A stretch of 64,000 bases of DNA from Candidatus Omnitrophota bacterium (GTDB lineage: Bacteria > Omnitrophota > Gorgyraeia > Zapsychrales > Zapsychraceae), in the NCBI GenBank assembly GCA_050250375.1, contig JBFWOS010000001.1:91346-155345 (forward strand), written 5' to 3'. Below are positions 22,074-51,606 of the stretch, piece by piece (the first letter of the stretch is position 1; each line of letters begins with the position of its first letter). The translations under genes were made by a program, and so were the position numbers. The notes under the pieces were generated by a model that was not told the origin of the DNA, did no database searches, and saw only the letters and a list, made by a program, of their open reading frames with translations.

Positions 22074-23678
22074 CTAAAATCTGGCGGTAGCGCCGAAAGT
22101 AATAGATAGGGAATCCCAATTGACTTCATTTAGACGTTGTTTAGGAGTGCCCCCATTACTTAGAAAAAACTGGACAGTTCCTGGGTCCATTTCCCAGTCT
22201 TGGAGAACTAAACTTAATGATAACGACCACATTGAATTTATAAAATAGTCCCCGCCCCCCTCAAACACAATCCCACGTCCCTTATCCGAAATCATTTCAA
22301 AACTTCTCGGATTGACGAAATCATCCCTTAAATTCCAAGTGCCGTCGCCCACATAATCCGCGAAGTGATACTCAAAACGACCAAAACCACGCAACTTATT
22401 TTTTCGAGTTCTTCCAGACAACTCTAACCCGACCCACGGGCCATCCCATTGTGACCTGTAACGACTATCCAGTCCTGGAAAGGGTCCAAAATCCGGTATT
22501 GTCTGATTTCCATCCTGTATGACAAAGTCTTGTTTGTGCCTTGAATACCCGCCTAAAAATGTGACGGTCAATTTATCGACAAGAAAAATCGGGTCCGGGT
22601 TATCAACATAAAAACGCAAACCTCCGGCCAAAGAATAATCCCAGACATAACCATCATCGGACGAATTATTCGAACGGGAAAATTCGTCCGTACGATTGTC
22701 TCCATCATAATCAGAATCCTGATTATCTCCCTTAATAATAGAACCATACCCCGCTTTGGCATCAACCACAAAATGATTCAATAATATAAAATCAAATTTG
22801 GCTTTTGCTTCTACCATTTGTATATCCGACCAAGTTAATTCTGATATAATGTTTGGTGTGGCCGTTCCGGTCAGATCAGACGCAATATTAAAATCCAAAT
22901 CATCAACGCGGTAACCGATCGTCACCCGGGTATTTGTTTCTATCCCCGGTATACCCACCTTCTGGTCTTCCGATTTATAATTTAAATTGATTGATGGGAC
23001 CGCATTTTCCTTAAATGGGTACTGGTCATTTGTAACTTCAGCCATTTCGGCCCGTTCCAAATCTTCCAGGGTAACCGTTTTAATACTCGTATTATTGTCA
23101 GCGAACCGCTTAAAATTTCGATCAACATTGTCATAATTATAATAATTATGGGCATCCTTAATATGTTCAGCTGGTTCAGCCTGAAACACATTTTCTGATT
23201 TTTGGACAGATGATTTGTTTCCAAATATAGATGCTGCGGAATCTTTAACGGCCTCATCAGACAAAGCCACTTCAAATATTTCCCTTTTGGGAGTCTTAAC
23301 AACCGTTTGCCCGTCTCCATAAACGTATATGGGATCATCCAGTTCCACAAAACTGCTTGCAGTCAACTCATTATCGGTTTTGAACGCTGATTTCTTTTTA
23401 GGTGAAGATTTTGCAGTTTTCTCAATATATGGATTTGGTGCTTTTGGAGGAATATTGATTACTTTAGCTTGAGGAACGCGTTTTACAGGTTCAATGTCTT
23501 CATCCGTGGCTTCGGAGATAGAAACAAACCCCATTTTTTTTATACGTTCTTCCTGATCATTCTCAGCAGACCAAGATCCGGTAGCAGTAAAAAAAACAGC
23601 CAAAATGACTGTCATTTTGACAATAAAATACTTACACAGATTATTCATATTGAACATAGGGATATTGTGCCATTTCAA
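22074..23678 (-). CDS. Putative outer-membrane beta-barrel protein. The true start may be the internal MTVILAVFF.
   Basis: Signal peptide, alternating amphipathic beta-strand-like C-terminal half, C-terminal ...GATARF (terminal Phe typical of OMPs). Confidence 0.5.
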   Translation of the reverse strand: MKWHNIPMFNMNNLCKYFIVKMTVILAVFFTATGSWSAENDQEERIKKMGFVSISEATDEDIEPVKRVPQAKVINIPPKAPNPYIEKTAKSSPKKKSAFKTDNELTASSFVELDDPIYVYGDGQTVVKTPKREIFEVALSDEAVKDSAASIFGNKSSVQKSENVFQAEPAEHIKDAHNYYNYDNVDRNFKRFADNNTSIKTVTLEDLERAEMAEVTNDQYPFKENAVPSINLNYKSEDQKVGIPGIETNTRVTIGYRVDDLDFNIASDLTGTATPNIISELTWSDIQMVEAKAKFDFILLNHFVVDAKAGYGSIIKGDNQDSDYDGDNRTDEFSRSNNSSDDGYVWDYSLAGGLRFYVDNPDPIFLVDKLTVTFLGGYSRHKQDFVIQDGNQTIPDFGPFPGLDSRYRSQWDGPWVGLELSGRTRKNKLRGFGRFEYHFADYVGDGTWNLRDDFVNPRSFEMISDKGRGIVFEGGGDYFINSMWSLSLSLVLQDWEMDPGTVQFFLSNGGTPKQRLNEVNWDSLSITFGATARF

Positions 23679-25151: not shown

Positions 25152-25928
25152 TCACTCTTTAGACTGATATTCAGGCATCTGTCCGTTTAATGCGTTTTCA
25201 ACCAGATGTTTGATATCCTGGCTGAAATTAGCGGACAAAATCCATTCAAGATACCCGCGGTCTTTTTTCACGACTTCTTCCAGAGAGTACCTCTTGGCAT
25301 ATTTACCGAACATCATGTATAACTTCCCGTTCCACCAGCGGAATTTTCTTTCCGTATCATAAAATTCATCGGAACTCTGATAGTCAAAGGCTAAAAGCGA
25401 ATCAATGGATCCGTCACCGTATTTGTTTGACTGCATCTGAAGAATTTCAAGGGTCGCGTTGGTGTCGGCCAAGGCCGTATGCGCGTTCTCGAGTGTTTTC
25501 TGGCAATAAAATTGATACGCGGCGGAAAGATCACGTTTTTCATTCAGATGGTACACCTTTTGAGCGTCGTATATTTTCCTCTGCTCAAAATCAAAACTGA
25601 GTCCCGATTCAATAAACTCCCTTCTCAGCAAAGGCAAATCAAATCGCTCCACATTAAATCCTCCAAAATCGGCATCCCCGATGAAAGCAAGAACCTCTTG
25701 AGCCACATCTTTAAATTGCGGCTGCCCCTTGACATCCTCATTTGAAATCCCTGTCAGCGCGGTGACGGCCGGAGGTATCGGCATCCCTGGATTAATCTTT
25801 CGCACATATTGTTCTTTATTTCCGTCAAGCAGGCATTTAACCAGGGCAATTTCAATAATTCGGTCCTTTTCCACCCAAGTCCCGGTCGTCTCCAGATCCA
25901 TAATAATAACTGTATTTGATAAATTCAT
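25152..25928 (-). CDS. DEDDh 3'-5' exonuclease (DnaQ/epsilon-like domain) with a C-terminal extension
   Basis: Exo I motif MDLETTG, downstream Exo II/III motifs (HTALADT). Confidence 0.78.
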   Translation of the reverse strand: MNLSNTVIIMDLETTGTWVEKDRIIEIALVKCLLDGNKEQYVRKINPGMPIPPAVTALTGISNEDVKGQPQFKDVAQEVLAFIGDADFGGFNVERFDLPLLRREFIESGLSFDFEQRKIYDAQKVYHLNEKRDLSAAYQFYCQKTLENAHTALADTNATLEILQMQSNKYGDGSIDSLLAFDYQSSDEFYDTERKFRWWNGKLYMMFGKYAKRYSLEEVVKKDRGYLEWILSANFSQDIKHLVENALNGQMPEYQSKE

Positions 25929-26039: not shown

Positions 26040-26885
26040 ATGGCAAAAATAATCTGTAACTATATTCTTATTTTATTTTTGTTTGCGATTGCCGGTTGCA
26101 GCTTGGCCAAATATGGCATCAATTACAGCCAAACAAGTATTCCGCGCTTTGCGGATTATTCTGTCACTAAAAATAACCCGCCTGAAGATGAACGGATCAA
26201 AGTTGTAAGTTACAATATCCGTTTCTCCAAAAAAATCGAAAAAGCTGTTAATATTTTAAATCAAAACAAAGATTTAAAAGATGCCGATATAATTCTTCTG
26301 CAGGAGATGGATGAAACAGGGGTTGAAAAAATAGCCAAGGAATTGAATTACAACTACGTTTATTACCCTGCCGTATTCCACCCCATACCAAAACAAAATT
26401 TCGGGAATGCTATCCTGTCCAAATGGCCGATCTTGAATGACAGTAAAATAATCCTTTCGGATGACAGCGATGAAAAACTGCAAAGGATCGCGGCCAGTGC
26501 AACCCTCGATATCAACGGAAAAAAAATGATGGTTTTCTCCGTCCATATGCGGATTTCAATTAAACCATTTATCCGATCTATCCAGACAGCCCGTATCATC
26601 CGGTCAATACCGGATGATATCGATTATTGTATCGTCGCTGGTGACTTCAATACGTTTACCCAGATGGGATACTTTGCCGTATTAAACCCATTTGAAAAAA
26701 ACGGATTTACGCTGGCAACAAAAGAAATCGGCTGGACTTACAAACACTGGTATACCGTAAACAAAAAGTTCTCCCTAGACCATATATTCAGTAAAGGGAT
26801 GAAAACGATCAACTACGGAAAAGTTAATAACCATTCAGCTAGCGACCATATTCCAATCTGGGCTGATTTTTCTTTAGTCAAATAA
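26040..26885 (+). CDS. Endonuclease/exonuclease/phosphatase (EEP) family lipoprotein
   Basis: Lipobox LFAIAGCS. EEP motifs (LLQEMDE, AGDFN, SDH). Confidence 0.72.
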   Translation: MAKIICNYILILFLFAIAGCSLAKYGINYSQTSIPRFADYSVTKNNPPEDERIKVVSYNIRFSKKIEKAVNILNQNKDLKDADIILLQEMDETGVEKIAKELNYNYVYYPAVFHPIPKQNFGNAILSKWPILNDSKIILSDDSDEKLQRIAASATLDINGKKMMVFSVHMRISIKPFIRSIQTARIIRSIPDDIDYCIVAGDFNTFTQMGYFAVLNPFEKNGFTLATKEIGWTYKHWYTVNKKFSLDHIFSKGMKTINYGKVNNHSASDHIPIWADFSLVK

Positions 26886-26889
26886 AGAT

Positions 26890-27090
26890 TTAGGCTTTAA
26901 CAACGTTTGCGGCTTGCTCGCCTTTCGGGCCTTCAATGATCTCAAACTCTACTTCCTGCCCTTCCTCAAGCATTTTGTAGCCGTCTCCCTGAATCGCAGA
27001 AAAATGAACAAAGACATCTTTTCCTGATTCCGGTGTAATAAATCCGTACCCTTTTTGGTTGCTGAACCATTTGACTTTTCCTTTTACCAT
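26890..27090 (-). CDS. cspA: Cold-shock protein
   Basis: [18 protein letters not shown] with RNP1/RNP2 motifs. Two adjacent ATGs; the second has the better SD spacing. Confidence 0.9.
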
Positions 27091-28595
27091 CATGAACTCC
27101 TTAGTTGTTGTAGTGTTTTCCTCAATAAATCGAACTGGAACGTTTTCACTACAAAATCATCCGCTCCAGCCGACTTTGCATCTTGCAAATCATTGGGTTG
27201 CAGGGTCGAAGTGACCATAATTATCTTGGTCGTAAAATCTGGGATAGCCTTGATCTTTTTGCACAAATCGAAACTATCCACATCCGGAAAAAATGTATCC
27301 AGAATAATCAGCACCGGTTTTTCGGCCACGACCTTGTTATAGGCCTCCGAACCTTTGGACACAAACCCCAGGTTGACATACCCCAGATCTTTAAAAACTT
27401 TCGCCATGCCGATTTTGTCCTTTTCACTGCGATCAATCAATAAGACTTTATCCATGATCATTTCTGTTTGATCAGTTTCTTTATCGGCCCCTTTTGCCTT
27501 GGCCATGGCTGATTTCCTGATATTGGAAAACGGTGCGTCTTCACCAAACTTCAACGAATTCGGATATTTTGCATAATCATAAGCCGTTTCCTTCGAAATA
27601 ACTTCCTGAATAACTAAATCTGAAAGGCAACGCTCAAAGGTATGCGTGTCGGAATCTTCTTCGGAATCAAGCTGTCCTCTCAGCTCAAGAAATGCTCCGC
27701 GACGAATTAAGTTCCGGATGGATATCGTCGTTAACAATAGTTCAGTCGCCAGGATCCGTTCGGTTGAATTTTTTCGCGGGATCAAGGTCTGCGAGCAGAT
27801 CCCGATTAGGTTTCCGGCTAATTGGGCAGAAACCTGTTCACGATAACCGGAAGGATAAACGTCAATAATCCGGTTTAAGGTCTCCACCGCATCCGGGGCG
27901 TGCACCGTGGTTAACACCAAATGCCCGGTTTCAGCGGCAGTCAGAGCCATCGAGATGGCTTCATAATCACGGATTTCTCCAATAACAATAACATCCGGAT
28001 CCTGACGCAGGGAATATTTCAAAGCGCTGGCGAAAGTAGGCGTGTCAGCACCGACTTCCCGCTGGATGATCAGGCTTTTTTTCGATTTATGGGTATACTC
28101 AATCGGGTCTTCAATCGTGACAATCTTGCATTTTTCCGTGTTATTGATCATGTTGATGATATACGTTAACGTCGTACTTTTACCGCTTCCTGATGCTCCT
28201 GAAACAATAAACAAACCTTTCTTGTGATTCGCAATATCTTTAAGGGGCTCGGGTAAACCAAAACGCAAGATTGTGTCTATATTGAGAGGTGTAACACGAA
28301 TGGTCGAAGCCATATGCCCTTTTTCAAAATGGACATTGACCCGGAATTGATAATCACTGCGGTAAGCGTAGGAACTGTCCAGTTCCCGCTCCTGAACAAA
28401 CTTTTGCTGCTGCCTTTCTGTGAGCATCTGAAAAACCAGGCTCTTAATCATATCGTCGTTGAGAACCTCTTCTCCCAAGGCCTCCAAATCACCGTGGATC
28501 CGGAGTATCGGCGGGTTACCAACAACAAGATGCAGATCTGAAGCGCTCTTCAGAATAGCCGTTTCTAATAAATCGTCAATTTTCTTGAATTCCAT
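27090..28595 (-). CDS. PilT-type pilus retraction ATPase fused to a C-terminal receiver domain
   Basis: PilT N-terminus ([13 protein letters not shown]), Walker [12 protein letters not shown]. The last ~130 aa form a receiver (LLIDRSEKD...ILDTFFPD...VVKT). Confidence 0.85.
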
Positions 28596-30126: not shown

Positions 30127-30882
30127 TTACTTTACCGTGAGTTCAACCGGACAGTGGTCTGAACCGATGACATCCTTTAGAATTTTTGAAGATATGACCC
30201 TGCGGCTAAACCCGCCGGACACACAAAAATAATCGATCCGCCATCCAATATTGCGCGCCCGGCAATTGTTCATCGGGCTCCACCATGTATAATGCCCGCC
30301 TTCTTTCGTAAATAGCCGAAAGGTATCCACGAACCCCGCCTTGATCATATTTTCGAAACCTGAACGTTCCTGCGGAGTAAAGCCATGATTTTTGACATTA
30401 CCCTTCGGGTTCGTAAGATCGAGCTCTGTGTGCGCGACGTTCAAATCTCCGCAAAAAATGACCGGTCTTTTCTTTTCCAGTTTTTTTAAATATTTCAAAA
30501 AATCAACATCCCATTCCTTCACTCGGTAATCAAGCCGTTCCAGTTCCCTTTTCGAATTAGGGACATAAACATTAACGAGAAAAAACTCAGAAAATTCAAC
30601 CGTGATCACCCTTCCTTCATGATCGTGTTTATCAATTCCTACTCCATACGTGACCTTTAAAGGTTTACGTTGGGTAAAGACCGCTGTTCCCGAGTACCCG
30701 GCTTTTTCGGCATCGTACCAGAATTGTTCATACCCTTTAAGGCTTAAGTCCGGCCGGTCTTTGGGAGATTTGGTTTCCTGCAGGCAGATTATATCCGCTC
30801 CTGCTTTCTCAATAAAACTGACCAGACCTTTGCCGATCGCCGATTTTATCCCGTTCACATTAAATGAAATTATTTTGATCAT
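30127..30882 (-). CDS. xthA: Exodeoxyribonuclease III
   Basis: MIKIISFNVNGI...ICLQETK. Exo III/APE family signatures throughout. Confidence 0.9.
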   Translation of the reverse strand: MIKIISFNVNGIKSAIGKGLVSFIEKAGADIICLQETKSPKDRPDLSLKGYEQFWYDAEKAGYSGTAVFTQRKPLKVTYGVGIDKHDHEGRVITVEFSEFFLVNVYVPNSKRELERLDYRVKEWDVDFLKYLKKLEKKRPVIFCGDLNVAHTELDLTNPKGNVKNHGFTPQERSGFENMIKAGFVDTFRLFTKEGGHYTWWSPMNNCRARNIGWRIDYFCVSGGFSRRVISSKILKDVIGSDHCPVELTVK

Positions 30883-30892
30883 GGCGAATATC

Positions 30893-31393
30893 CTATTTTG
30901 TTAAACTGGTTATTAATTTTTTCTCATGCGGATACCGCTCGGTCAGCTCATCCCGCCGGGCCGTCTTATAATCGTTAAAGTCAAACCCGGGGGCAACCGT
31001 GCATCCCATCAAGGCATATTTCCCGCCCCGCTTCAGGCGGCATCCCTGCCAGACCATCCGGGGGACCATTAATTGTACTTCGTGCCCGTTGAGGATATCG
31101 TGACCTAAAATATACCTCTGGGTCGATCCATCTTCGAATAAATGCAGCATCTCCACCGGGTCACCCAAATAAAAATGAAACGTTTCATCCGTTGGCAAAC
31201 GATGAATCGCGGAAAACGTCTTTGGAGTCAGTAAATAAAAAATGGTAGTTGAAAAATTCCTGGTCCCCTCGTAACGGGCCGGCAGGCCGACAACCGGGAT
31301 CATTTCTTCACTGCGGTAGGTTTCTAAATAATATCCGCCTTCCACCGGATGCGGCCTTAACCCCAACTGTTTGATAATTTGTTTTGCGTTCAT
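30893..31393 (-). CDS. Cupin-fold protein, DUF985-like
   Basis: LGLRPHPVEGGYYLETYRS matches the DUF985 cupin N-terminal signature. Confidence 0.65.
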   Translation of the reverse strand: MNAKQIIKQLGLRPHPVEGGYYLETYRSEEMIPVVGLPARYEGTRNFSTTIFYLLTPKTFSAIHRLPTDETFHFYLGDPVEMLHLFEDGSTQRYILGHDILNGHEVQLMVPRMVWQGCRLKRGGKYALMGCTVAPGFDFNDYKTARRDELTERYPHEKKLITSLTK

Positions 31394-31429: not shown

Positions 31430-33547
31430 TTAAGGGATGTACTGTTCCAAGGCCGGTTTCCACCGGCGATATCCCTCACGGTTCAGGTGAAGTCCGTCTG
31501 TAGTCCAGGCCGGATTAAGCTGGCCGTTCTGTTCATACGTCGGATACACATCAATATAAACGGCATGGTGTCGTTCAGCGGTTATTTTAAGATTCTGGTT
31601 AAATAAACGGATATCCGCATTGCTGATGGTGCGTTTATAAAATTTCATAAACTTTCCGTCATGCGTCGGCAGAAGACTATGAACATACAGTTCGGTATCC
31701 GGCAGCTGTTCCCGGATTTTACTGATTGTAAGGTCATATTGCGACAACATTTGATCCGCCGTCCCGGCGGACGGTTGGTCATTGATACCGACCATTAAAA
31801 AAATCTTTTCCGGATTTAATTTCGCGACCTCATCAAGGCGCCTGTAAACACCCGCTATTTTTTCACCGACAATTCCCAGGTTCAGAATCGCATCGTTATC
31901 CAAAAAACTGGCCCAGTCATTCAGGGCAAAAAAACTGTCCCCGATAAATACAATCGGCCTGCCGCTACGCGTTCTAAATCGTTTTTGTCCGGTCATATCA
32001 AACAGAAACGCCGCCGAATCTTTCAAGACAACCCCCTGCCGTCGTTCTCCGAAACGATTAAAATAATCCATGGTCAGTTTCACAGAAGGCCATTGCGGGT
32101 TAGAAAAAATCAGCCATACCCGGCCATGTTTTAAAAAGTTGTTAAGCGATGATTCCGTCACGGCAAGGGAGGATTGCACCCGGTTCTCACGGTACGCCCC
32201 GGACGCATCATAATTAAGCACCATTTGACTGATCGGTAGTTTTCGGCCTTGGTCGGACGGGATGATTGAATCCGATATTCCCCATAATGAAAAATGCCTG
32301 TTGTCCGGATTAAGCTCTCGCCTGTTCACATAATACACAAACGGATAAAACGCGTTCATGTTTAGGCAAACACCGTCGCCCGGTTTGTAATTCTTTTTAA
32401 AATATTCCATAACCTGCCTGTTCTGCTGCTGTTCCCTTCCGGAGAGAACCGCTTCTAAGGCTACCGTTATCGGCTGGGAAAGTAACATAAAACCGGCTAC
32501 CAGACTTACGACAAGTCCTGTTTTTCCGAATCGTTCGCCCAACCATCCCAGACCGGCCGCAACAAATATATAAATCATCGGACATAAAAATAAAATCTCC
32601 CGTCCGAAAACAGGGTACAGTTTAAAACAACCCATAATAAACACGATCAGAAACGGAATGATGATCAGGCTGAACCGTTCCATATTTTTGCGGGCCACGG
32701 CCTGAAGGCCGGTTAAGAAAGTAATGGATGCCACCAGGGGAAACTGGAAACCAGCCGGAAATTCAAACATCAGCTGTGAAATTTGAATCACCCAATCAAG
32801 CATGGCGGTAGACCAAAACGGGGCATTGCTAAACTTCCCCTTAATCGCCGACCAAACATAGTGGCTTTGGACCAAATGACTAAACGCCACGAGATAAAGG
32901 ACAATAAAACTGACCATCCAGACACTAATAACCCCGATGAAGGACGGTATCCTTTTGTAATATTTAAACGAAATAATCTGGTCAGCCAGGCAGAGTCCAA
33001 CAGAGACTAACACAAACAAGCTGATATTGGAAAACCAGATGACCGTCGCGCCTAAAACACTCAGCGTCAGCATACTTTTAGGATTGAACTCCAGCCGCCG
33101 GGCGTGTTCGAAATACAGCAGCAGAACCAAACACATCAATACATCGCTGGAATAGGGTTTAACCTCAGCTGCAAAATAAACCAACGCGTCAGAACAGGCG
33201 AACAGACCCAACGCGAGCAGTGCCGTCCTGGGCTTTAAATATAATTTGGCAAACTGAAGGAACAAAAACAATGAAATGACAGAGCAAATCAGCGGATACA
33301 ACCTGAGGGCATACTCGGACGGGCCGAATAAACCGACGACTAATTTTTCCACCAGATAAAATCCCAACGCGTCCAGCGATTGATCCGGAACAACTTGAAC
33401 GTAATAAAATATTTCCTTAAAGGACCGGCTCAGGATGCTAACGGCATATTTTGCCTCTTCTCCCCAGAGGGAGCGGTTTTCAAGAAAGTGCCAAAACCTC
33501 AATCCCAACCCAACGGCAATAATTAACCAATAATATACGTTACGCAT
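31430..33547 (-). CDS. Fusion of a GT39/ArnT-like polytopic membrane glycosyltransferase with a C-terminal SGNH/GDSL hydrolase domain
   Basis: N-terminal ~480 aa with about 13 TM segments, in a PMT/ArnT-like arrangement. C-terminal IVFIGDSFF (block I GDS), GINDQ (block III) and DGLHLNREGY (block V DxxH). Confidence 0.7.
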   Translation of the reverse strand: MRNVYYWLIIAVGLGLRFWHFLENRSLWGEEAKYAVSILSRSFKEIFYYVQVVPDQSLDALGFYLVEKLVVGLFGPSEYALRLYPLICSVISLFLFLQFAKLYLKPRTALLALGLFACSDALVYFAAEVKPYSSDVLMCLVLLLYFEHARRLEFNPKSMLTLSVLGATVIWFSNISLFVLVSVGLCLADQIISFKYYKRIPSFIGVISVWMVSFIVLYLVAFSHLVQSHYVWSAIKGKFSNAPFWSTAMLDWVIQISQLMFEFPAGFQFPLVASITFLTGLQAVARKNMERFSLIIIPFLIVFIMGCFKLYPVFGREILFLCPMIYIFVAAGLGWLGERFGKTGLVVSLVAGFMLLSQPITVALEAVLSGREQQQNRQVMEYFKKNYKPGDGVCLNMNAFYPFVYYVNRRELNPDNRHFSLWGISDSIIPSDQGRKLPISQMVLNYDASGAYRENRVQSSLAVTESSLNNFLKHGRVWLIFSNPQWPSVKLTMDYFNRFGERRQGVVLKDSAAFLFDMTGQKRFRTRSGRPIVFIGDSFFALNDWASFLDNDAILNLGIVGEKIAGVYRRLDEVAKLNPEKIFLMVGINDQPSAGTADQMLSQYDLTISKIREQLPDTELYVHSLLPTHDGKFMKFYKRTISNADIRLFNQNLKITAERHHAVYIDVYPTYEQNGQLNPAWTTDGLHLNREGYRRWKPALEQYIP

Positions 33548-33581: not shown

Positions 33582-34583
33582 CTAGTCGACCAACTCACGG
33601 TCCAGGTTCAGAATGGCTTCCTTAAGCCCGTAAACAACTTTGGTCATATTGTCAAAATTTAAAGTTTCGGCTTTATCGGATTGGCGATGATAATGGCGGT
33701 TACGCAAAAACGCCGTGTCCGTGACCATAACAGCCGGATAACCCATTTTCCAGAACGACCAGTGGTCGGAATAATAAATCCCTGGAACAAATTCGGGAGA
33801 GATAACCTTCTCGATGGGAAAATCACTTTTTTGTCTAAACCCACGGTAAAGAAAATTAGCGATGTGCCGGGATCGAAGGTTGCCTACGATACTGATAAAA
33901 TTCGCCTGGTTAGGATAAAATGGCCCTAAAAACGGCAGATAGCGCTGGGAGAATAAATCCTGGGAATAATACCCGATCATTTCCAAAATAACAGATCCCT
34001 TGATCCGTTCCTCCTTTGCCTTGGCCTGGCGGGTATAAACATAACTCCCCATATTAACGGTATGGAAAAAAGGCGGCTCTTCATTGACGAAGGCAATAAA
34101 CTTTACGGTATGATTTAAGCGGCTGTTCTTAAATTGTCTGGCGAGTTCCAGCAGACCGGCTACCCCGCTGGCATTATCATCCGCTCCCGGATTATAACAG
34201 GAATCGTAGTGAGCCCCTATAATTATGATTTCACCGGGATAGGTAACCCCCTGTTTAACGGCAATCAAATTTTTGTAAACCTTGCCGTCGATTTTATAGG
34301 ACATGACCTGCACAGGATACCCCAGTTCCGCAAATGACTGATAAATAAACGAACTGGCGTCTTCGAGGTTATCATAGTTGGCATGATTACGGACGCCTAT
34401 TTCCTCGGCAAGGATGTTCACAAAGTTTCGCAGCCGAATGGAAACAGCCTCCTCATCCCTGGTCATTTTAATCTGTTTTCTGTCCGAAGGTCTCCAGCCG
34501 AAGGTTGTCAGATAGATGAATCCAGGGATAACAAAAACCAGCCAGACGAGCATTATGAAAAACTTTTTATAGGGATAACCCAT
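33582..34583 (-). CDS. M28-family zinc aminopeptidase with an N-terminal membrane anchor
   Basis: GAHYDSCYNPGADDNASGVAGLLELA. The HxD...D...E(E)...H ligand pattern of M28. Confidence 0.8.
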   Translation of the reverse strand: MGYPYKKFFIMLVWLVFVIPGFIYLTTFGWRPSDRKQIKMTRDEEAVSIRLRNFVNILAEEIGVRNHANYDNLEDASSFIYQSFAELGYPVQVMSYKIDGKVYKNLIAVKQGVTYPGEIIIIGAHYDSCYNPGADDNASGVAGLLELARQFKNSRLNHTVKFIAFVNEEPPFFHTVNMGSYVYTRQAKAKEERIKGSVILEMIGYYSQDLFSQRYLPFLGPFYPNQANFISIVGNLRSRHIANFLYRGFRQKSDFPIEKVISPEFVPGIYYSDHWSFWKMGYPAVMVTDTAFLRNRHYHRQSDKAETLNFDNMTKVVYGLKEAILNLDRELVD

Positions 34584-37389: not shown

Positions 37390-39558
37390 ATGGAATCCAG
37401 AGTAATCCCCATATTCAGCAATAAAGGCGGTGTCGGAAAAACGTTTGTCGCGGTTAACTTAGCGGCTACCCTCGCCCTGTTGAAACGCAAAGTTTTATTG
37501 CTCAATCTCGATCTCCAGGCCGGACATGATATGGCCATTAATTTGAATGTGACCCCGGAACAATCATTGGCCCATCTCATTCCCGAGATGAAAAAAACTG
37601 AACAGTTCAGTCTTGAAACAATCAAAAAATTCCTGGTTCCGCATTCATCCGGATTTGATTTCTTAACGGCCATCACCGACCCACAGCAAATCAACTCAAT
37701 CCATCCGGCCGATGTTAAAATATTCCTGAATAAAGTCAACGTCCATTACGATTTTATCATTGTCGATTTAGGCGTTTCGTTCAATGAGTTGGTAATCACT
37801 GTCCTCGATAATTCTGATGCGATCCTGCTCTTGGCCACACCGGATGTTCTGGCCGTCTATCAATTGGCCTGGTGTATTAAAACCCTGCAGGAAATGCATT
37901 TTTCACTGAAAACAGTAAAGCTGGTCCTCAACCGGGCAGAAAGCCAGGGCGGCGTCGGCTGGAAAGAAGTCCGGGCGGCCCTGGATATTGACATTATCGG
38001 ACGGATCCCCTCCGATGGGAAGGCCGTTGGAAAGGCCCTTGAATTGGGAATCCCGGCCGTTGAAGAAAATCCTCGGGGAACAATCGCGGACGGCTTTAAA
38101 AAATTAGCGGCTGAACTTTTCAAAAAAGATATTTATTTACCGAAGTCCGAGGCCAAACAGCGAAACATGCAGTCGGAAAAAATTGAAACCCTGGCCGCCC
38201 AGGACGCGATTGTTGAATTTAAGGAAGGTGAAACCAAAGAACCGCCCAAACAAGATGACATTTTCAAAAACGCCGACTATACCAAAATTAAAATTAGTAT
38301 TCAGAAAAAACTGATTGACCGTCTTGAGATGAATTCCCTGACACCCGAACATTTCACCGACCCTAAAAAAGCCCAAGAACTAAGAGAATCCGCCAAACAA
38401 TTGATCAATACTATCCTGTTGGAAGAAGGCGGGAAATATGCCTCCTCCCTGGAAATTCGTACCCGGACCGTAAATGAAATCGTTAAAGAAACGTTTGGGC
38501 TGGGGATCCTCGAGGAAATCATGGAAGACGTCAACGTCGAAGAAGTCATGGTCAACGGCAGCCAGGAAATATATATCGAGAAAAAAGGTGAAATCACCTT
38601 AACCGAACATAAGTTCATTTCTGACCAGCATCTCAGGGCTATTATTAACAGGATCATCGCGCCTCTCGGCCGGCGTCTGGACGAATCTTCTCCGATGGTC
38701 GACGCCCGACTTCAGGACGGTTCCCGGTTCAATGCGATTATTCCACCGGTCTCCTTATCCGGCCCATGTGTAACCATCCGGAAATTTGCCGCTGAAAAAC
38801 TGACGGTCGATCATATTGTCTATAAATTTAATACCCTGTCCGAACAGATGAACAATTTTCTGCATGCGTGTGTCCTGGGCCGGATGAATATCATTATCGC
38901 CGGAGGTACCGGTTCCGGAAAAACAACTCTTTTAAACGTCCTGTCTGAATTTATCCCGGACGATGAACGCATCATCACCATAGAAGACGCGGCCGAGTTA
39001 AGTCTGCAAAAAGAACATTGGTGCCGGCTGGAAGCGCGCCCGGCCAACGTCGAAGGCGTCGGTGAAATCTCCGTTCGCGATCTGTTCGTTAATACCTTGC
39101 GTATGCGGCCTGACCGTATTGTCATCGGTGAATGCCGGGGGCCGGAAGTATTGGATATGCTCCAGGCCATGAACACCGGCCATGACGGCTCTATGACCAG
39201 CCTTCACGCTAACTCGGCCCGGGATGTCCTCATCCGCATGAGTTCCATGATCCTTTTAAGCGGGATCGAACTGCCCATGCGGGCCATTAATGAAATGATT
39301 TCTTCGGCGATCAATATCATCGTCCACATGGCGCGTTATACGGATGGTTCGCGCAAAGTCACAGGGATCTCGGAAATCGTCGGCCTTGATAATGACAGTG
39401 AACTGGATCTTAAAGAAATCTTTTTTTTCAATCAAACCGGCCGCGATGAGTCGGGCGTCATCCACGGCCAGTTTCAGAATTCGAATTATATCCCCAAATG
39501 TGCCGATGAACTGATTAAAAAAGGGGTCAAAATCGATTTGTCCATGTTTAAATCTTAG
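37390..39558 (+). CDS. Fusion ATPase: N-terminal ParA/MinD-like (TadZ/CpaE-type) domain plus C-terminal CpaF/TadA VirB11-family secretion ATPase. Paralog 1.
   Basis: Deviant Walker A SNKGGVGKT at residues 9-17. C-terminal T2SS_E domain with GGTGSGKTTLLN, ITIEDAAEL and GHDGSMTSLHANS. Confidence 0.85.
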   Translation: MESRVIPIFSNKGGVGKTFVAVNLAATLALLKRKVLLLNLDLQAGHDMAINLNVTPEQSLAHLIPEMKKTEQFSLETIKKFLVPHSSGFDFLTAITDPQQINSIHPADVKIFLNKVNVHYDFIIVDLGVSFNELVITVLDNSDAILLLATPDVLAVYQLAWCIKTLQEMHFSLKTVKLVLNRAESQGGVGWKEVRAALDIDIIGRIPSDGKAVGKALELGIPAVEENPRGTIADGFKKLAAELFKKDIYLPKSEAKQRNMQSEKIETLAAQDAIVEFKEGETKEPPKQDDIFKNADYTKIKISIQKKLIDRLEMNSLTPEHFTDPKKAQELRESAKQLINTILLEEGGKYASSLEIRTRTVNEIVKETFGLGILEEIMEDVNVEEVMVNGSQEIYIEKKGEITLTEHKFISDQHLRAIINRIIAPLGRRLDESSPMVDARLQDGSRFNAIIPPVSLSGPCVTIRKFAAEKLTVDHIVYKFNTLSEQMNNFLHACVLGRMNIIIAGGTGSGKTTLLNVLSEFIPDDERIITIEDAAELSLQKEHWCRLEARPANVEGVGEISVRDLFVNTLRMRPDRIVIGECRGPEVLDMLQAMNTGHDGSMTSLHANSARDVLIRMSSMILLSGIELPMRAINEMISSAINIIVHMARYTDGSRKVTGISEIVGLDNDSELDLKEIFFFNQTGRDESGVIHGQFQNSNYIPKCADELIKKGVKIDLSMFKS

Positions 39559-39576: not shown

Positions 39577-41739
39577 ATGAAAACAAAAGTCATTACATTC
39601 TGGAGCAACAAAGGCGGCGTTGGAAAAACATTTCTGGCGGTGAATACAGCCACCACATTGACCTTGTTAAAACACCGGGTCCTGCTGATGGAATTAAACT
39701 TTCAGTCCATCCATGCGATCGACAAAATGTTAAATCTCGTCAGCCGTTTCGGGCTCGCCAACCTGATGTCCCAGATCGAAACCCTGGATAATCCCGAAAT
39801 CATCAAAAAAGCCGTCTCCCCTCATTCCTGCGGGATGGATTATCTGCCGGTGGTCTCAAGTTCCACCCAGAATGCTGAATTTACAACCGCAAAAATAAAG
39901 GCTTTTTTTGAAAAGGCGTCAACTTTGTACGATTTTATTATTCTGGATGCCCGCCGCGCGCTCAGTGAAGGTCTCGTTTCCGTGATGCAAAATTCAAATC
40001 TGGTCGTGCTGATTGATACGCCTGAAAATTTGACCGTCAACAAATTTAAATGGTGCCTGTCCATGCTCAACAGCATCCATATTCCCAAACCGATGATCAA
40101 GCTGGTCATCAACCGGTCCGCGTCCCGGGGGACTGTTGATCCGAAATTATTAAAAGAACAACTGGGCCTGGACATCCTGGGAGAAATCCCTTCGGATGGA
40201 AAAACGGTAGGTTTAGCCCTCAACAGCTGCATCCCCTGCGTCCTCGATAGTCCGAAAAGTCCGGTCACCCAGGCCATCGTGAATTTTGCGAGAAAATTTG
40301 AGAATGAGGCACTATATCCTGAAGTCACTATTCAGGAAAACGCGCTGATTTCCGGTAAGATTCAGGACCAGGACGGCTCGCTGAAAAAATTCGGGGTAAC
40401 CCGCTCCAAAGATGACAATGCTTTTATATTCAACCAGGATGATGAGGAAATCCTTCTGAAAAAGAAGACTCATGAAAAACTGGTTAAAGAAATGAATATT
40501 GTTAACCTGGGGCCAGAGTCCTTTACGGATGAAAAACTAATGAAGGAACTTCGTGAAAAAGCCACGGGTATCACCGATAAACTGCTGACCCAGGAATATT
40601 CAAAGTTGACCAAGGATGACACCATCCGCGCCCGTTTGACGAACGAAATTGTCAGCGAGGCCTTCGGTCTTGGGCCGCTCGAAGAATTTCTGGAGGACAC
40701 GGACGTCTCGGACATCATGGTCAACAGCCAAAGACAAACCTTTATTGAAAAGAAAGGTAAAATCATTAAAACCGGCGCAAAATTTTCGTCTGAAATGCAG
40801 ATGCGAAGCATCATCGACCGGATCATTGCTCCGTTAGGCCGCCGGATTGACGAATCAACTCCCATGGTCGACGCGCGCTTGCAGGACGGTTCGCGTTTTA
40901 ACGCGCTTATCCCCCCGCTCTCTTTAACGGGGCCTATGATCACGATCCGTAAATTCGGGCGTGAACGCCCAAAAGTCGATGACCTCCTGAACAAATACAA
41001 TAGCTTAAATGACAATATGCGTGTATTTCTTGAAGCCGCAGTCCGCGGAAGAAAAAATATTATCGTTTCCGGAGGAACAGGTTCAGGAAAAACAACCCTT
41101 CTCAACATTATCTCAACATTCATTCCGGATAAAGAACGGATCGTCACGATTGAAGACGCGGCTGAGTTAAGAATCAACAAATCCCACTGGATCCGGCTGG
41201 AATCGCGTCCGCCCAACATTGAAGGTAAAGGGCAGATCCACATCCGGACCCTGTTCATGAACAGCCTGCACATGCGCCCGGACCGTATTATCGTCGGGGA
41301 ATGCCGGGGGTCTGAGGTCATCGACATGCTCCAGGCCATGAATACGGGACATGACGGGTCTATGACGACCCTGCACGCCAACTCCACCAAAGACGTGCTG
41401 GTCCGCATGAGTTCCATGATTCTGCTGGCCGGTGTTGAATTACCCATTCGCGCGATTTACGAAATGATTTCCACCGCCCTGGACCTCATTGTCCATATCA
41501 ACCGGTTCAGTGACGGGACCCGTAAGATTGTCGAAATCACGGAAGTCGCCGGCCTGACGAAAGACCACTCCCTCCAATTAGGCGATATTTTCAAATTTGA
41601 ACAAAAGGGAATGGATGAAGGCGGCAAGATTCTCGGAGAATATGTGGCGACCGGTTATGTGCCTAAATGTTATGAGGAATTCAAAACGATCGGGATTGAT
41701 CTCGATAAAAACATATTCACTCCCCCCGCAAAAAAATAA
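39577..41739 (+). CDS. Fusion ATPase: ParA/MinD-like domain plus CpaF/TadA ATPase. Paralog 2, about 55% identical to paralog 1.
   Basis: SNKGGVGKTFLAVN, then GGTGSGKTTLLN, VTIEDAAEL and GHDGSMTTLHANS. Same architecture and length as the upstream gene. Confidence 0.85.
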   Translation: MKTKVITFWSNKGGVGKTFLAVNTATTLTLLKHRVLLMELNFQSIHAIDKMLNLVSRFGLANLMSQIETLDNPEIIKKAVSPHSCGMDYLPVVSSSTQNAEFTTAKIKAFFEKASTLYDFIILDARRALSEGLVSVMQNSNLVVLIDTPENLTVNKFKWCLSMLNSIHIPKPMIKLVINRSASRGTVDPKLLKEQLGLDILGEIPSDGKTVGLALNSCIPCVLDSPKSPVTQAIVNFARKFENEALYPEVTIQENALISGKIQDQDGSLKKFGVTRSKDDNAFIFNQDDEEILLKKKTHEKLVKEMNIVNLGPESFTDEKLMKELREKATGITDKLLTQEYSKLTKDDTIRARLTNEIVSEAFGLGPLEEFLEDTDVSDIMVNSQRQTFIEKKGKIIKTGAKFSSEMQMRSIIDRIIAPLGRRIDESTPMVDARLQDGSRFNALIPPLSLTGPMITIRKFGRERPKVDDLLNKYNSLNDNMRVFLEAAVRGRKNIIVSGGTGSGKTTLLNIISTFIPDKERIVTIEDAAELRINKSHWIRLESRPPNIEGKGQIHIRTLFMNSLHMRPDRIIVGECRGSEVIDMLQAMNTGHDGSMTTLHANSTKDVLVRMSSMILLAGVELPIRAIYEMISTALDLIVHINRFSDGTRKIVEITEVAGLTKDHSLQLGDIFKFEQKGMDEGGKILGEYVATGYVPKCYEEFKTIGIDLDKNIFTPPAKK

Positions 41740-48564: not shown

Positions 48565-51500
48565 TTAAAATTTCTTAAAAATGGAATCGAGGACTCCTTC
48601 AATAAGGATCTGCTCCGGGGCTTTTTCCGGTTGTGCCGGCGGAGCCGTTTCTCCCGACGGCGCAGTCTGTTTGATGCCTTGGGCCGGTTGCGTCCCGCCT
48701 GATGCCGGGGTTTCCGGGCCGGAAGCCGGCGCCTTTTCTCCCGAATCAAATGTCTTATTGAACAGTTTCTGCAATTCCTCACGGCCCTTATTTTTAAGCG
48801 CGTTTGCCGCCAGATCTTTCAAGTCAGGAAAAAATTGGACGTTGGGACCTTTCCCGGTAATCAGCAGCGGGAACCGGATCCTCTTTTGTTCATCGTAGAG
48901 GTATTCCAGCTGCGGCGCCGCCTGAGCCATATACTGCGACATATCCTGCGGAATAATAAATATCCCGTTAAACGTATAACGCTGGTCGAATCCGACCTGG
49001 CCAGTTCCAGTAAAGAGAAAATTGTCCGCGGTCAGATTAAATGATTTGATCTTGACCAGGCTGTTTTCTATGCCGATTGTCATAGTCGCGTCGGTAATGA
49101 CCGTATCTTTCTGGTTAAGCCGTGTTTTTAAATCCGGCGGAAGAATGGACTCGATCGTCTGCCGGAAATTGGAGATAATCTTGATATTATCAAGAACCAA
49201 CGCCAGGATGTTGATATCGGTGAGCCGCCCTTCCTTAAACGCCAGGTTCCCCTGCCCCGTCAGGGCCTCCATCATCACGTTCGGTTCAAAGCCGTGCCCC
49301 TGGATCGCAAGCTCTCCGTTAATAACACCCTGAACCTTAACCGCGAAATCCTTTTGGTTGATGATTTCAGCCAGACTTAAATCGATCAATTTCGTGTCGG
49401 CCTGATAACGCTGTTCCTTCACAAAATCAGTCAAGGACCCTTTGAGCGATAAACTGCCCTTCCCGAGTTTAAGGACGATTTCCTCCATCGTCACATTATT
49501 CCCCGCGAACTGAATCTTGGCCTGGACCGGATCGACCGGCGCGTTTAATTCCTTGAGCACGACCCTGCCGTTTTTAAATTCCATGGTCCCGTTCACCGGT
49601 CCGAGGCCTGACGGCCCGGCCGTCAATGAACTTAAGGCGACGGAGGCCTGCCCTTTTAACTCGACCGGTAACGGCGCGTCTTTAAGCGCCGCGATGCTTT
49701 GTTTCAGCCGGTCTAACGATAACGCCGATAAATCCGTCTGGAAATTCAGCCCGTCGATCTTGATCTCCTGGGTCTGCTGGTTCAACGCGGCCTTTGTCTC
49801 AAACGAAAAATTCGGCCGGTCACTCAGGTAAGCCAGTTCACCCTGCACACTGAACGGCCCGCCGTTCAGCGAAAAATCTTTGATGTTAAGTTTGGCCTGC
49901 GACACATCAAGACCGACACCCGGAGCGATTTCCTTAAATGACACCTGCCCCCCGGATAAAGACACATCCATGGACAGCGATTCAAGTCCGGCAGGTCCGG
50001 CCGCGGCATCCTTGATCGATACCCGGCATTTTCCGGCCAGCTTGTCCGGCAGCGGGACATCTTTGAGCGCGGGCGCGCTTTCCTTGATTTGCGCAAGCGA
50101 AAACCCGGCCAGGTCGGTTTCAAACGTCGTATCCCTCAGGCGCACTGATTGTTTTTCCAGATTAAATACGCCGTAGCCGTCAAGCGAGACATTCGGCACC
50201 GGATTCATAACACCGGCTTTTAAAGAAAAAGAAAACGGTCCGTTCAGCGAAAAATCTTTTAACGCCAGGTTTATGCCCTGCACAGACAACGCCGCCCCGC
50301 TCTTGTCCTTAAGGCTCACCGCTCCATTGGTCAAACCGAAGTTCATATTAAGAGAAGTCAACCCGGCAGGCCCCGCAGAAAATTCATTGAGGTCCAGACG
50401 GATATTTCCCGTCAGCTTATCCGGAAGCGGCTGGTCCTTGAGCATCGGAACGGCAGACTTCAGCTGGTCCAGCGAATAAGAAGACAGGTCGGTGGTCACG
50501 GACACTCCGCTTAAGCGGACGCTCTGTGACATCATGTCAAACAGGGCCTTGCCCTGGACTGTGATATTCGGCTGATCGTTCAGATACGCGGCAGAGACAT
50601 TCCATTGAAACGGATTGTTTAACGAAAATCCGGTCACACCGACGTTGATCTTTGAGGCCGCAAACGATACGCCGGGCGCGGCTTCTTTGATCGCAATCTT
50701 TCCGTTTTCAAATTTGACATCGGCGTTGACGGACGTCAGTCCCTGCGGTCCGGCCGCAAGTTCTTTGACCGTTAGTGTAAACTGACCGCCCAGCACTTCC
50801 GGAAAAGGGACATTTTGGGGGATGACCGGAAGCTGACGGATCGCGTCAAAAGAGATCTTGTCCAAATCTGTTTTAAGGCTGAATTGTGAAAGGGTAACCG
50901 CCGACGTTTTCGGGTCAAGCCGGACCTTGCCTTCCACCCGGATATTTTCCTGCTGGCCGAAAACCGCCGCGCCCAAAGAGACCTTAAACGGCGCGCTTAA
51001 TGAAAATCCGTTAACCATCAGGGATGCCTGCGTCACGCTCAGCTTCATTTCAGGATCGAAGGTGCGGTCAATGACGGTAATTTCGCCCCCGGTCATTTCA
51101 ACGGTATCCACAAACACAGCCGGCAAATCCGCCGGCTTTGCCGCAGGGGATGACGGGCCTGATCCCCCGGTCCCGGGCTGCGAAGGATTTTCCGCCGGAG
51201 GAGTTCCGATCGTCTGGGCATTGATCTGTCCGTCTTTATCCCGAATAATGGTTACCCGCGGTGATTTGATCTGCACCCGGGTGACCGCGATCTCCTTCTT
51301 CATAATATACGACAACACGTTCACACTGACAAAGACTTCATCGACACTGAAAAAATCGCCTGTTCCGAAAGCGGAACTTTCACTGATCGTCACTCCGTTA
51401 ATCGCGAAGCGTACGCCCTGGCTGATGGAAGGTTTTAAATCAATCGTCTTAAAATCAACCGTGCGGTTAAGCGCCGAATTCGCGGCCGCGACAATCTGGG

Positions 51501-51606
51501 TTTTATAACGGTTAACGTCCAGTGTTTTCAGGAAGATAAAAACACCCGCCAACAGCAGGACAAACAGGATTAAAACTACAAGGATAATTCGTTTAAGGAT
51601 TTTCAT
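48565..51606 (-). CDS. AsmA-family protein (TamB/AsmA-like envelope lipid-transfer protein), 1013 aa
   Basis: N-terminal TM anchor MKILKRIILVVLILFVLLLAGVFIF. A long beta-rich body with about 4 internal repeats of ~105 aa. Low-complexity P/A/S/G tail. Confidence 0.72.
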   Translation of the reverse strand: MKILKRIILVVLILFVLLLAGVFIFLKTLDVNRYKTQIVAAANSALNRTVDFKTIDLKPSISQGVRFAINGVTISESSAFGTGDFFSVDEVFVSVNVLSYIMKKEIAVTRVQIKSPRVTIIRDKDGQINAQTIGTPPAENPSQPGTGGSGPSSPAAKPADLPAVFVDTVEMTGGEITVIDRTFDPEMKLSVTQASLMVNGFSLSAPFKVSLGAAVFGQQENIRVEGKVRLDPKTSAVTLSQFSLKTDLDKISFDAIRQLPVIPQNVPFPEVLGGQFTLTVKELAAGPQGLTSVNADVKFENGKIAIKEAAPGVSFAASKINVGVTGFSLNNPFQWNVSAAYLNDQPNITVQGKALFDMMSQSVRLSGVSVTTDLSSYSLDQLKSAVPMLKDQPLPDKLTGNIRLDLNEFSAGPAGLTSLNMNFGLTNGAVSLKDKSGAALSVQGINLALKDFSLNGPFSFSLKAGVMNPVPNVSLDGYGVFNLEKQSVRLRDTTFETDLAGFSLAQIKESAPALKDVPLPDKLAGKCRVSIKDAAAGPAGLESLSMDVSLSGGQVSFKEIAPGVGLDVSQAKLNIKDFSLNGGPFSVQGELAYLSDRPNFSFETKAALNQQTQEIKIDGLNFQTDLSALSLDRLKQSIAALKDAPLPVELKGQASVALSSLTAGPSGLGPVNGTMEFKNGRVVLKELNAPVDPVQAKIQFAGNNVTMEEIVLKLGKGSLSLKGSLTDFVKEQRYQADTKLIDLSLAEIINQKDFAVKVQGVINGELAIQGHGFEPNVMMEALTGQGNLAFKEGRLTDINILALVLDNIKIISNFRQTIESILPPDLKTRLNQKDTVITDATMTIGIENSLVKIKSFNLTADNFLFTGTGQVGFDQRYTFNGIFIIPQDMSQYMAQAAPQLEYLYDEQKRIRFPLLITGKGPNVQFFPDLKDLAANALKNKGREELQKLFNKTFDSGEKAPASGPETPASGGTQPAQGIKQTAPSGETAPPAQPEKAPEQILIEGVLDSIFKKF
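49450..51040 (-). repeat. Intragenic tandem repeats of about 315 nt (~105 aa), about four copies, inside the AsmA-family gene. Coordinates approximate.
   Basis: Protein-level repeats FSLN(G)PF...DL(A/S)(G/S)FSL(A/D)Q(I/L)K(E/S)(S)AP(A/M)LKD(V/Q)PLPDKL(A/T)G...AAGPAGL(T/E)SL recur about every 105 residues. Confidence 0.6.

Follow-up and report, generated by a model that had tools for sequence, protein, structure and literature searches.

The question raised by this locus is what a polytopic membrane protein with the fold of a glycosyltransferase could do with an SGNH hydrolase attached to its C terminus. The locus lies in a stretch of 64,000 nucleotides from a Candidatus Omnitrophota metagenome-assembled genome (MAG) (GenBank assembly GCA_050250375.1, contig JBFWOS010000001.1, positions 91,346–155,345 of the forward strand), and this whole stretch is called the window hereafter. 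The fusion gene is a single uninterrupted open reading frame (ORF) of 705 codons on the minus strand, starting with ATG and preceded by a Shine-Dalgarno-like AAGGTGA 12 nt 5′ of it. Two proteins identical to its product are present in NCBI (MGE0269340.1 and MGE3979897.1), and the first of them is named only as “GDSL-type esterase/lipase family protein.” Because this name refers to the esterase domain alone, the public annotation is limited to the C-terminal quarter of the protein; a search of the 705-aa protein against NCBIfam matched zero models. We found that the protein consists, in this order, of an 11-transmembrane (TM) module of GT-C fold, the module's own periplasmic α/β domain, a variable linker and a complete SGNH domain. 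As a tentative reading, which comes close to being probable without reaching it, the protein may process a single glycoconjugate of the envelope on the periplasmic side of the inner membrane and couple sugar transfer with de-O-acetylation.

The joining of two separate genes by an assembly error or a frameshift was considered as a trivial explanation of this architecture. The sole hint of it was the position of the junction, which in the family alignment falls exactly at the C-terminal end of the SGNH-less relatives, and this is equally what is expected of a true gene fusion. Seven full-length fusion proteins were found, which come from different assemblies and fall into seven separate 90% clusters, and all of them are continuous across the junction and have the same gene order. 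The long forms P0002 (704 aa, 78% identity to the window protein) and P0003 (712 aa, 67%) come from other sequencing runs, share the architecture of the window protein and are encoded in the order 136-aa protein, M28 peptidase, fusion, Cupin_5 and xth. The short forms (P0014 and P0162–P0164; 562–564 aa, 40–42% identity to the window protein) hold the same syntenic slot (M28, fusion, Cupin_5, xth, hypothetical, HAD and PilT-RR), and one of them is recorded on 51 contigs. The sources of the continuous ORF include NCBI MAGs, the Logan runs SRR23004066, SRR17347198, SRR17347209 and SRR12358676, and ENA. As the same continuous ORF recurs in independent samples and assemblies at 40–78% identity to the window protein, the probability of an artefact is negligible. 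The single ORF described in the initial annotation is thus genuine, and the frameshift or mis-join that it had named as the way to overturn it was excluded by the continuous syntenic orthologues. The linker at the junction has a predicted local distance difference test score (pLDDT) below 50 at residues 522–528 and an identity of 18–65% among orthologues. The C terminus of P0162 diverges abruptly after the DGVHLS block (…PGRICSMASVSATVRETVR), which looks like a frameshift in that assembly and not a real variant.

The combination is rare. When 1.84 billion representative proteins were searched exhaustively with HMMER, 19,664 matches were obtained, and among the best 150 of these the P0001 cluster was the only full-length match. 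The next match in this set was the short form P0014, followed by more than 100 proteins of roughly 450–600 aa that matched only positions about 1–520. Similarly, none of the best 80 of 237 relatives in the GTDB species representatives extends into the SGNH domain, and a scan of Joint Genome Institute (JGI) metagenomes with motifs of the fusion clade yielded no further fusions. The SGNH fusion was seen only in Omnitrophota, and all the fusion members named in NCBI are Omnitrophota/Omnitrophica MAG proteins. Thus, the fusion is confined to a small Omnitrophota clade represented by a handful of MAGs. The literature gave no description of a GT-C–SGNH fusion, nor of SGNH together with GT39 or ArnT; other GT-C families were not surveyed.

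The SGNH domain was recognized by Pfam as Lipase_GDSL_2 (PF13472; residues 545–695, 77.7 bits against a cut-off of 32.9, E = 2e-21) and as Lipase_GDSL (residues 533–695, E = 1e-7). Block I (FIGDS, with S538), block II (NLGIVGE, with G558/G561), block III (GIND, with N589) and block V (DGLH, with D684/H687) are all invariant in the seven full-length fusion proteins, and the catalytic residues align to those of the Protein Data Bank (PDB) structure 6NJC. The blocks I, III and V that the initial annotation had called intact are therefore all present, and the loss of the catalytic Ser or His on careful alignment, which it had seen as a possible weakness, was not observed. In a phmmer search of PDB sequences, the best matches were 6NJC and 7PZG (E = 1e-31, 33–34% identity over the whole domain), which are structures from Bacteroides (Phocaeicola) vulgatus deposited as sialate O-acetylesterase. 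They are also the best structural match (template modelling score (TM-score) of about 0.68 on the target) and have the same S, G, N and D-x-x-H. Weaker matches included a putative platelet-activating factor (PAF) acetylhydrolase, Bacteroides acylhydrolases and the mammalian PAF-AH Ib. The 6NJC/7PZG proteins and PAF-AH Ib are soluble stand-alone enzymes, whereas the domain studied here forms the C terminus of an 11-TM protein, and there is no indication of sialic acid as a substrate in Omnitrophota. EstA of B. fragilis, which is of the same kind as 6NJC/7PZG, is a 9-O-acetyl-specific esterase that is secreted; with E. coli as the expression host, it was purified from the periplasmic fraction (PMC5512079). 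The closest stand-alone homologues of the SGNH domain (P0177 of Selenomonas and cyanobacterial proteins) carry N-terminal hydrophobic anchors or signal sequences, which places the SGNH domain family outside the cytoplasm. The simple anchor of these relatives is replaced in the fusion by the GT-C module. The search made with the SGNH domain alone scored 39 word-index candidates and returned eight matches, which is not deep enough to show where the domain came from.

The direction of the SGNH reaction matters here because the initial annotation had compared the protein to OatA. In the AT3-SGNH O-acetyltransferases (OatA, OafA/OafB and the eukaryotic CASD1), a polytopic domain is covalently joined to an SGNH domain that lies outside the cytoplasm and has glycans at the membrane surface as substrates, and SGNH folds can run in the transferase direction (OatA, PatB and also OafB). 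An alternative is therefore that the SGNH domain is an O-acetyl or acyl transferase that decorates the sugar newly installed by the GT-C module, as the first reading of the sequence had suggested from the order of a polytopic domain followed by an extracytoplasmic SGNH domain. Pfam found no AT3 (PF01757) match in the 705-aa protein, and neither AT3 nor MBOAT was found among the neighbouring genes scanned, so such a route for an acyl donor across the membrane is missing. As the membrane domain is GT-C and not AT3, no acetyl-CoA relay is apparent either. The closest relatives of the domain are hydrolases, none of OatA, PatB and Ape1 was among its 19 PDB matches at E ≤ 1, and the four hydrolase blocks are all canonical. 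Thus, the analogy with OatA holds at the level of architecture and fails for the AT3 domain and for the type of SGNH domain, which is esterase-like and not OatA/PatB-like. Because of the missing AT3 and OatA/PatB/Ape1 matches, the domain is more likely, as judged from its relatives, to hydrolyse a small acyl (acetyl) ester than to transfer an acyl group, and glycosylation followed by O-acylation is considered very improbable.

The membrane part was examined with two AlphaFold2 (AF2) models. The first, built on a 13-sequence alignment, predicted the membrane part with confidence but the SGNH domain poorly, and the second covered residues 1–525 with a 75-sequence alignment (72 SGNH-less relatives and three long-form fusions) and reached a pLDDT of 93.8 and a predicted TM-score of 0.93. 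This model and the hydropathy profile both gave 11 TM helices. The long first external loop bears three short helices, and the second long loop spans residues 227–269. The short loops carry 14 Lys/Arg on the cytoplasmic side against three on the periplasmic side, which indicates an N-in/C-out orientation, and with this topology the α/β domain, the linker and the SGNH domain are all predicted to be periplasmic. The claim of a periplasm-facing C-terminal SGNH domain with an intact catalytic apparatus was thus borne out. When the second model was compared with the PDB by Foldseek, all 24 matches at E < 1e-3 were GT-C enzymes with 10–14% identity, including STT3, ALG12, PglB, ALG9, AglB, ArnT, Pmt4, AftA and AftB, and the TM-scores were 0.56/0.61 for ALG12 and 0.54/0.53 for ArnT (GT83; PDB 5EZM/5F15). 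The modelled membrane part therefore unambiguously has a GT-C fold. At the sequence level, Pfam PMT_2 touched residues 65–212 below its gathering score of 26.1 bits (23.0 bits with the full protein as query, 23.9 bits with residues 1–525) and matched 51 of the 75 aligned sequences at E ≤ 0.01 (best E = 5.6e-10). The 75-sequence family profile gave no meaningful match to PDB sequences, and hhalign of this profile with E. coli ArnT was not significant (E = 0.75), so the GT-C assignment rests on the fold together with the weak PMT_2 matches.

These results changed the classification proposed initially, a GT-C-type domain of about 13 TM helices resembling PMT or ArnT. The polytopic GT-C nature of the N-terminal part was upheld by the fold, and the helix count was not, being 11. 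GT39 (PMT) was rejected, as PF02366, MIR and PMT_4TMC had no match at E ≤ 1, the GT39 PMT model matched none of the 75 aligned sequences, and the structural similarity of Pmt4 and Pmt1 to the membrane module in Foldseek was weaker than that of ALG12, ArnT or STT3. The likeness to ArnT survives in a remote form, with PMT_2 below its threshold and 10–14% identity. As the window protein does not reach the 26.1 bits of PMT_2, it is a remote relative whose membership in GT83/ArnT is unproven, and the membrane module is best placed in a GT-C family that is uncharacterised and has PMT_2/ArnT as a remote relative.

The conservation of residues in the GT-C half was counted over 151 SGNH-less members of this family with a threshold of ≥90%. 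Thirty positions passed. The window protein has the family residue at 28 of them, including 22 of the 24 conserved TM positions and all the conserved residues of the periplasmic domain (D391, Y405, Y406, R476 and W478). Its two exceptions, D30 to Glu and P60 to Ala, are common to the long forms, and P60 is Ala in every fusion protein. The conserved polar residues W28, D30, E31, E78, R82, K130, Y132, D135, S173, Y311 and R316 are all predicted to lie in periplasmic loops or at helix ends, and the model and the sequence place K130, R316 and R82 at the periplasmic interface; E31, R82, K130, Y132, D135, Y311 and R316 are among the residues that the window protein retains along with the five of the periplasmic domain. 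The D30-E31 pair belongs to “NRSLW-x-D-E-A,” directly after TM1, which is the site of the acidic motif in loop 1 of GT-C enzymes.

ArnT offers a close comparison. PMT_2 is the only Pfam model touched by the family of the membrane part, both proteins have a C-terminal periplasmic α/β domain and conserved basic residues in periplasmic loops, and an acidic motif follows TM1 directly in both (“LWGEEAKYA” in the window protein and “LWQPDETRYA” in E. coli ArnT). The wider stretch “RSLWGEEAKYA” parallels “RLLWQPDETRYA” of E. coli ArnT by eye, without statistical support. In ArnT, the tyrosine of RYA, K69 and R254 are required for function (PMC5377068), and in PMTs the DE motif of loop 1 is important for activity (PMC5016187). 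The window protein differs from ArnT in having 11 instead of 13 TM helices, about 12% identity, Glu for Asp, a sub-threshold PMT_2 match and an extra SGNH domain. Its “EEAKYA” resembles DExRYA, but it has no YFEKP and no arn operon context, arn genes being absent from the window ORFs scanned. Glycosyl transfer by the window protein is plausible.

The proposed function starts from the observed architecture, topology, fold, catalytic SGNH residues, rarity and lineage restriction. The protein would sit in the inner membrane of a diderm Omnitrophota cell with its α/β and SGNH parts both in the periplasm. Its GT-C module would bind a polyprenyl-phosphate-linked sugar, a lipid-anchored acceptor, or both, and the long form probably still transfers sugar. 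The SGNH domain, tethered by a flexible linker of ∼13 residues, may then act on this substrate or on the product by hydrolysing an O-acetyl (short acyl) ester, and such de-O-acetylation would be coupled spatially to the modification of the glycan. For this scheme we infer the type of donor, the direction of the esterase, the sharing of one substrate and the activity of the Glu30 variant. The coupling of glycosylation with de-O-acylation or O-acyl transfer, as first suggested for this protein, is a hypothesis, and a plausible one.

Several results weigh against this coupling. Whether the catalytic Asp of loop 1 is conserved had been set down at the outset as a point to be checked, and it is not: Asp30, the likely catalytic acid, is found in 99% of the 151 SGNH-less members and is Glu in all the long forms (E30-E31 in the window protein) and Thr, Ser or Arg in the short forms. 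The proposed pairing of a glycosyltransferase with an SGNH enzyme therefore stood for the architecture and the intact SGNH domain, and not for this Asp. The short forms are also without W28 (Ser), K130 (Ser/Gly) and R316 (Glu/Leu/Asn), and those of 562 aa entirely lack the periplasmic domain (residues about 370–512); glycosyl transfer would therefore be dispensable in the orthologues and may already be impaired in the window protein. Among the ORFs scanned in the window, there was neither a GT2 polyprenyl-phosphate sugar synthase nor a flippase nor any other glycan gene. The conserved synteny extends through the entire region and takes in DNA-repair, HAD and pilus genes, and so reflects relatedness and not a functional operon. 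In the full-length model, the SGNH part was predicted with low confidence, and how the domains are oriented to each other is therefore not fixed. The role of the parent family in glycosyl transfer is itself a putative one, and no SGNH ORF was found within 6 kb of 80 parent-family loci in GTDB (best 80 of 237), so nothing independent ties the two activities together.

The loss of Asp30 from every fusion, along with the invariable Ala60, suggested another possibility, which is a serious one and still rather unlikely, that the GT-C module of the whole fusion clade has retired from glycosyl transfer and acts as a membrane platform that binds a substrate, either lipid-linked or embedded in the membrane, or presents it to the SGNH domain. 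The latter would then be the sole catalyst, working as an acetyl/acyl esterase on the membrane surface. The short forms fit this, as they keep GDS, the Gly of block II, GxND and DGxH, and thus every SGNH catalytic residue, despite their losses in the GT-C half, and a spacing of ∼25 residues after the last TM helix puts their SGNH domain at the membrane surface. The 11-TM module is the best-conserved part of the protein in both the long and the short groups (64–86% identity), at least as constrained as the SGNH domain; the window protein and P0002 share 85% identity in the TM module and 69% in the SGNH domain, and P0014 and P0162 share 86% and 75%. Such a constraint would imply a role beyond anchoring, and the replacement of the simple N-terminal anchors of stand-alone SGNH relatives by the module agrees with it. 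However, the retention of nearly all conserved TM and periplasmic-domain residues by the window protein speaks against retirement, the change from Asp to Glu is conservative, and the short forms may have undergone their losses secondarily, in their own lineage.

The distribution of these features allowed a parsimonious order of events to be proposed, in which the TM module and the periplasmic domain were present in the parent, the SGNH domain was then fused and D30 became Glu, and one lineage later lost both the periplasmic domain, by deletion, and the residues that putatively bind phosphate. Judging from the residues kept, the esterase is the constant catalytic element across the orthologues, and the membrane module of the short forms, which is unlikely to carry out classical glycosyl transfer, may be kept for another function. 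Taken further, a GT-C scaffold may have been converted into a substrate-presenting membrane partner of a periplasmic SGNH enzyme in this Omnitrophota clade, an idea that we regard as unlikely on present evidence. If true, it would define a novel type of membrane-coupled enzyme, an esterase or acyl modifier that is parallel to AT3-SGNH and built on GT-C. The long form would then be an intermediate, transferase-like with Asp changed to Glu, and the 562-aa short form the end state, without the catalytic acid, the putative phosphate-binding Lys/Arg and the acceptor domain.

The parent of the membrane part is a large, uncharacterised, SGNH-less family of proteins of 500–600 aa that occurs in many phyla and has the signature “NRSLW-x-DEA ... 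AEVK-x-YS-x-D ... YP-x-x-G-R.” In the GTDB species representatives, 237 loci encode relatives of the membrane part, with cyanobacterial members (Okeania, Trichodesmium erythraeum IMS101, Rivularia and others) as well as members from Omnitrophota, Chloroflexota, WOR-3, Stahlbacteria, Acidobacteriota, Nitrospirota, Planctomycetota, Armatimonadota and more; most are unnamed or called “hypothetical protein.” A flippase-like LPG_synthase_TM gene adjoins the family in 21 of 36 cyanobacterial loci, which often also contain GT2, GT4 and Wzx genes. An LPG_synthase_TM-like flippase with GT2, GT4 and Wzx is the usual setting of periplasmic GT-C glycan modifiers, and this context supports a glycan-modifying role for the parent family. 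Outside cyanobacteria, the context is heterogeneous. The loci of the SGNH-less relatives P0004, P0005 and P0009 had neither an SGNH neighbour nor a glycan cluster, and of the SGNH-less Omnitrophota loci, one (L010) consists of rows of GT-C paralogues and the other two of unrelated genes. The M28 gene was not a recurrent neighbour among the 80 GTDB loci.

A few further observations were made in this family. A recurrent 587-aa polytopic protein without a Pfam match flanks it in 13 cyanobacterial loci (15 of 80 overall), and examples of the genes flanking the family in cyanobacteria, whether LPG_synthase_TM or this one, are found at L041 3785–4759 and L037 7629–9392 in the locus set L009–L088. 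In L010 (2502–9787; Omnitrophota MAG OFTM38), two proteins with sub-threshold PMT_2 matches are encoded upstream of the SGNH-less family member, and a protein with a weak YfhO match followed by a TPR protein downstream. P0100, a 953-aa protein from a JGI metagenome, is a parent-family member with an extra C-terminal extension of ∼400 aa.

The missing link between SGNH genes and the parent family in the 80 loci also bears on the possibility that the two halves have independent activities on unrelated substrates, with the fusion providing a membrane tether and co-expression and nothing more. The variable linker and the restriction of the fusion to one small clade are compatible with this. An 11-TM module would, however, be a costly tether; the fusion has been kept down to 40% identity with the TM module highly conserved, and the short form puts the SGNH domain directly on the periplasmic face of the TM module. 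Two unrelated activities are thus improbable, and we retain, as tentatively as before, the coupled processing of one glycoconjugate.

Known systems provide further points of reference. Three-component systems for the modification of periplasmic glycans, such as Gtr and Arn, consist of a GT2 polyprenyl-phosphate sugar synthase, a flippase and a GT-C transferase. The cyanobacterial SGNH-less family, with its flanking LPG_synthase_TM, GT2, GT4 and Wzx genes, resembles them, a likeness that comes mainly from one phylum, and the fusion gene differs in being without such partners in the window. Periplasmic glycan modification usually uses separate enzymes for sugar transfer and for the addition or removal of acyl groups. 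If the proposed function is true, the covalent GT-C–SGNH pair would be a natural experiment indicating that sugar and acyl steps can be coupled at the membrane surface, and the long and short forms together offer a rare stepwise view of a glycosyltransferase scaffold that was possibly repurposed. The analysis also brings out a large unannotated GT-C family in cyanobacteria (Trichodesmium and Okeania) and in many uncultured phyla. The immediate impact is modest, because the organisms are uncultured and the fusion is confined to a few MAGs.

The coordinates of the protein parts and of the adjoining genes are collected in Table 1. As had been noticed from the sequence, the adjoining gene encodes a membrane-anchored M28 peptidase, and M28 is the conserved upstream neighbour at all the fusion loci; at locus L007, the M28 stop and the start of the fusion gene overlap by 8 nt. 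Between lineages (window versus L007, with M28 at L007 1–975), the identity was 47% for M28 and 41% for the fusion protein, and 62–76% for xth, Cupin_5, HAD and PilT-RR. The fast divergence of M28 and the fusion protein fits envelope-exposed proteins and is no proof of a partnership. The xth-like gene is probably unrelated in function to the fusion gene. A promoter and terminator scan of 29–37.5 kb gave counts equal to the shuffled expectation.

Table 1. Features of the fusion protein and its adjoining genes (nucleotide positions refer to the window; residues to the 705-aa protein).
Feature	Residues	Position (nt)	Strand	Basis or remark
Whole ORF	705 aa plus stop	31430..33547	-	NCBI MGE0269340.1, Candidatus Omnitrophota MAG
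GT-C-fold membrane module, 11 TM, N terminus cytoplasmic	1-369	32441..33547	-	AF2, Foldseek, PMT_2, hydropathy
TM helix 1	2-22			Second AF2 model
First periplasmic loop motif W28-G-E30-E31-A-K-Y-A35	28-35	33443..33466	-	Family “W-x-D-E-A”, Asp to Glu
TM helix 2	78-103			Second AF2 model
TM helix 3	106-127			Second AF2 model
TM3-TM4 periplasmic loop K130-P-Y132-S133-S-D135	130-135	33143..33160	-	Family-conserved; K130 lost in short forms
TM helix 4	132-151			Second AF2 model
TM helix 5	156-172			Second AF2 model
TM helix 6	176-193			Second AF2 model
TM helix 7	197-226			Second AF2 model
TM helix 8	270-287			Second AF2 model
TM helix 9	289-307			Second AF2 model
TM9-TM10 periplasmic loop Y311-P312-V-F-G-R316	311-316	32600..32617	-	Family-conserved; R316 lost in short forms
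TM helix 10	315-339			Second AF2 model
TM helix 11	341-369			Second AF2 model
Predicted periplasmic α/β domain of the GT-C family	370-517	31997..32440	-	Alignments, AF2 model
Variable linker	518-530	31958..31996	-	Begins where SGNH-less family proteins stop
SGNH/GDSL hydrolase domain	531-705	31433..31957	-	Pfam, phmmer, alignment
Catalytic Ser	S538	31934-31936	-	Block I
Catalytic Asn	N589	31781-31783	-	Block III
Catalytic Asp	D684	31496-31498	-	Block V
Catalytic His	H687	31487-31489	-	Block V
M28 peptidase, N-terminal hydrophobic anchor		33582..34583	-	Upstream, co-directional, 34-nt gap; E 4e-26
Cupin_5 (DUF985)		30893..31393	-	Downstream, co-directional, 36-nt gap; synteny conserved
Exodeoxyribonuclease III-like (xth, Exo_endo_phos)		30127..30882	-	After Cupin_5, 10-nt gap; syntenic

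The fusion gene is located in a lower-GC stretch of the window, the GC content being 38–45% over ∼14–38 kb and mostly 47–55% toward both ends. A Pom family protein (Protochlamydia outer membrane protein, PF17251; 534 aa, E = 1e-52) is encoded at 22074–23678 (-), and a 1013-aa AsmA/DUF748/YhdP-like protein with a T2SS-N-like segment, which is a putative inter-membrane lipid transporter, at 48565–51606 (-). Along with a DegP-like protease that is also encoded in the window, these genes fit a diderm envelope. Two tandem genes at 37390–39558 (+) and 39577–41739 (+) encode proteins of ∼720 aa, each combining an N-terminal ParA/CbiA-type P-loop domain with a CpaF-like T2SSE ATPase. The PilT-RR gene at 27090–28595 (-) encodes a PilT-like T2SSE ATPase to which a response-regulator receiver domain is joined at the C terminus, and it showed 94% identity to its counterpart at L003 and 76% to that at L007. 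The three nuclease genes within 6 kb, at 25152–25928 (-), 26040–26885 (+) and 30127–30882 (-), comprise one RNase_T/ExoX-like and two Exo_endo_phos genes, of which one is xth-like.

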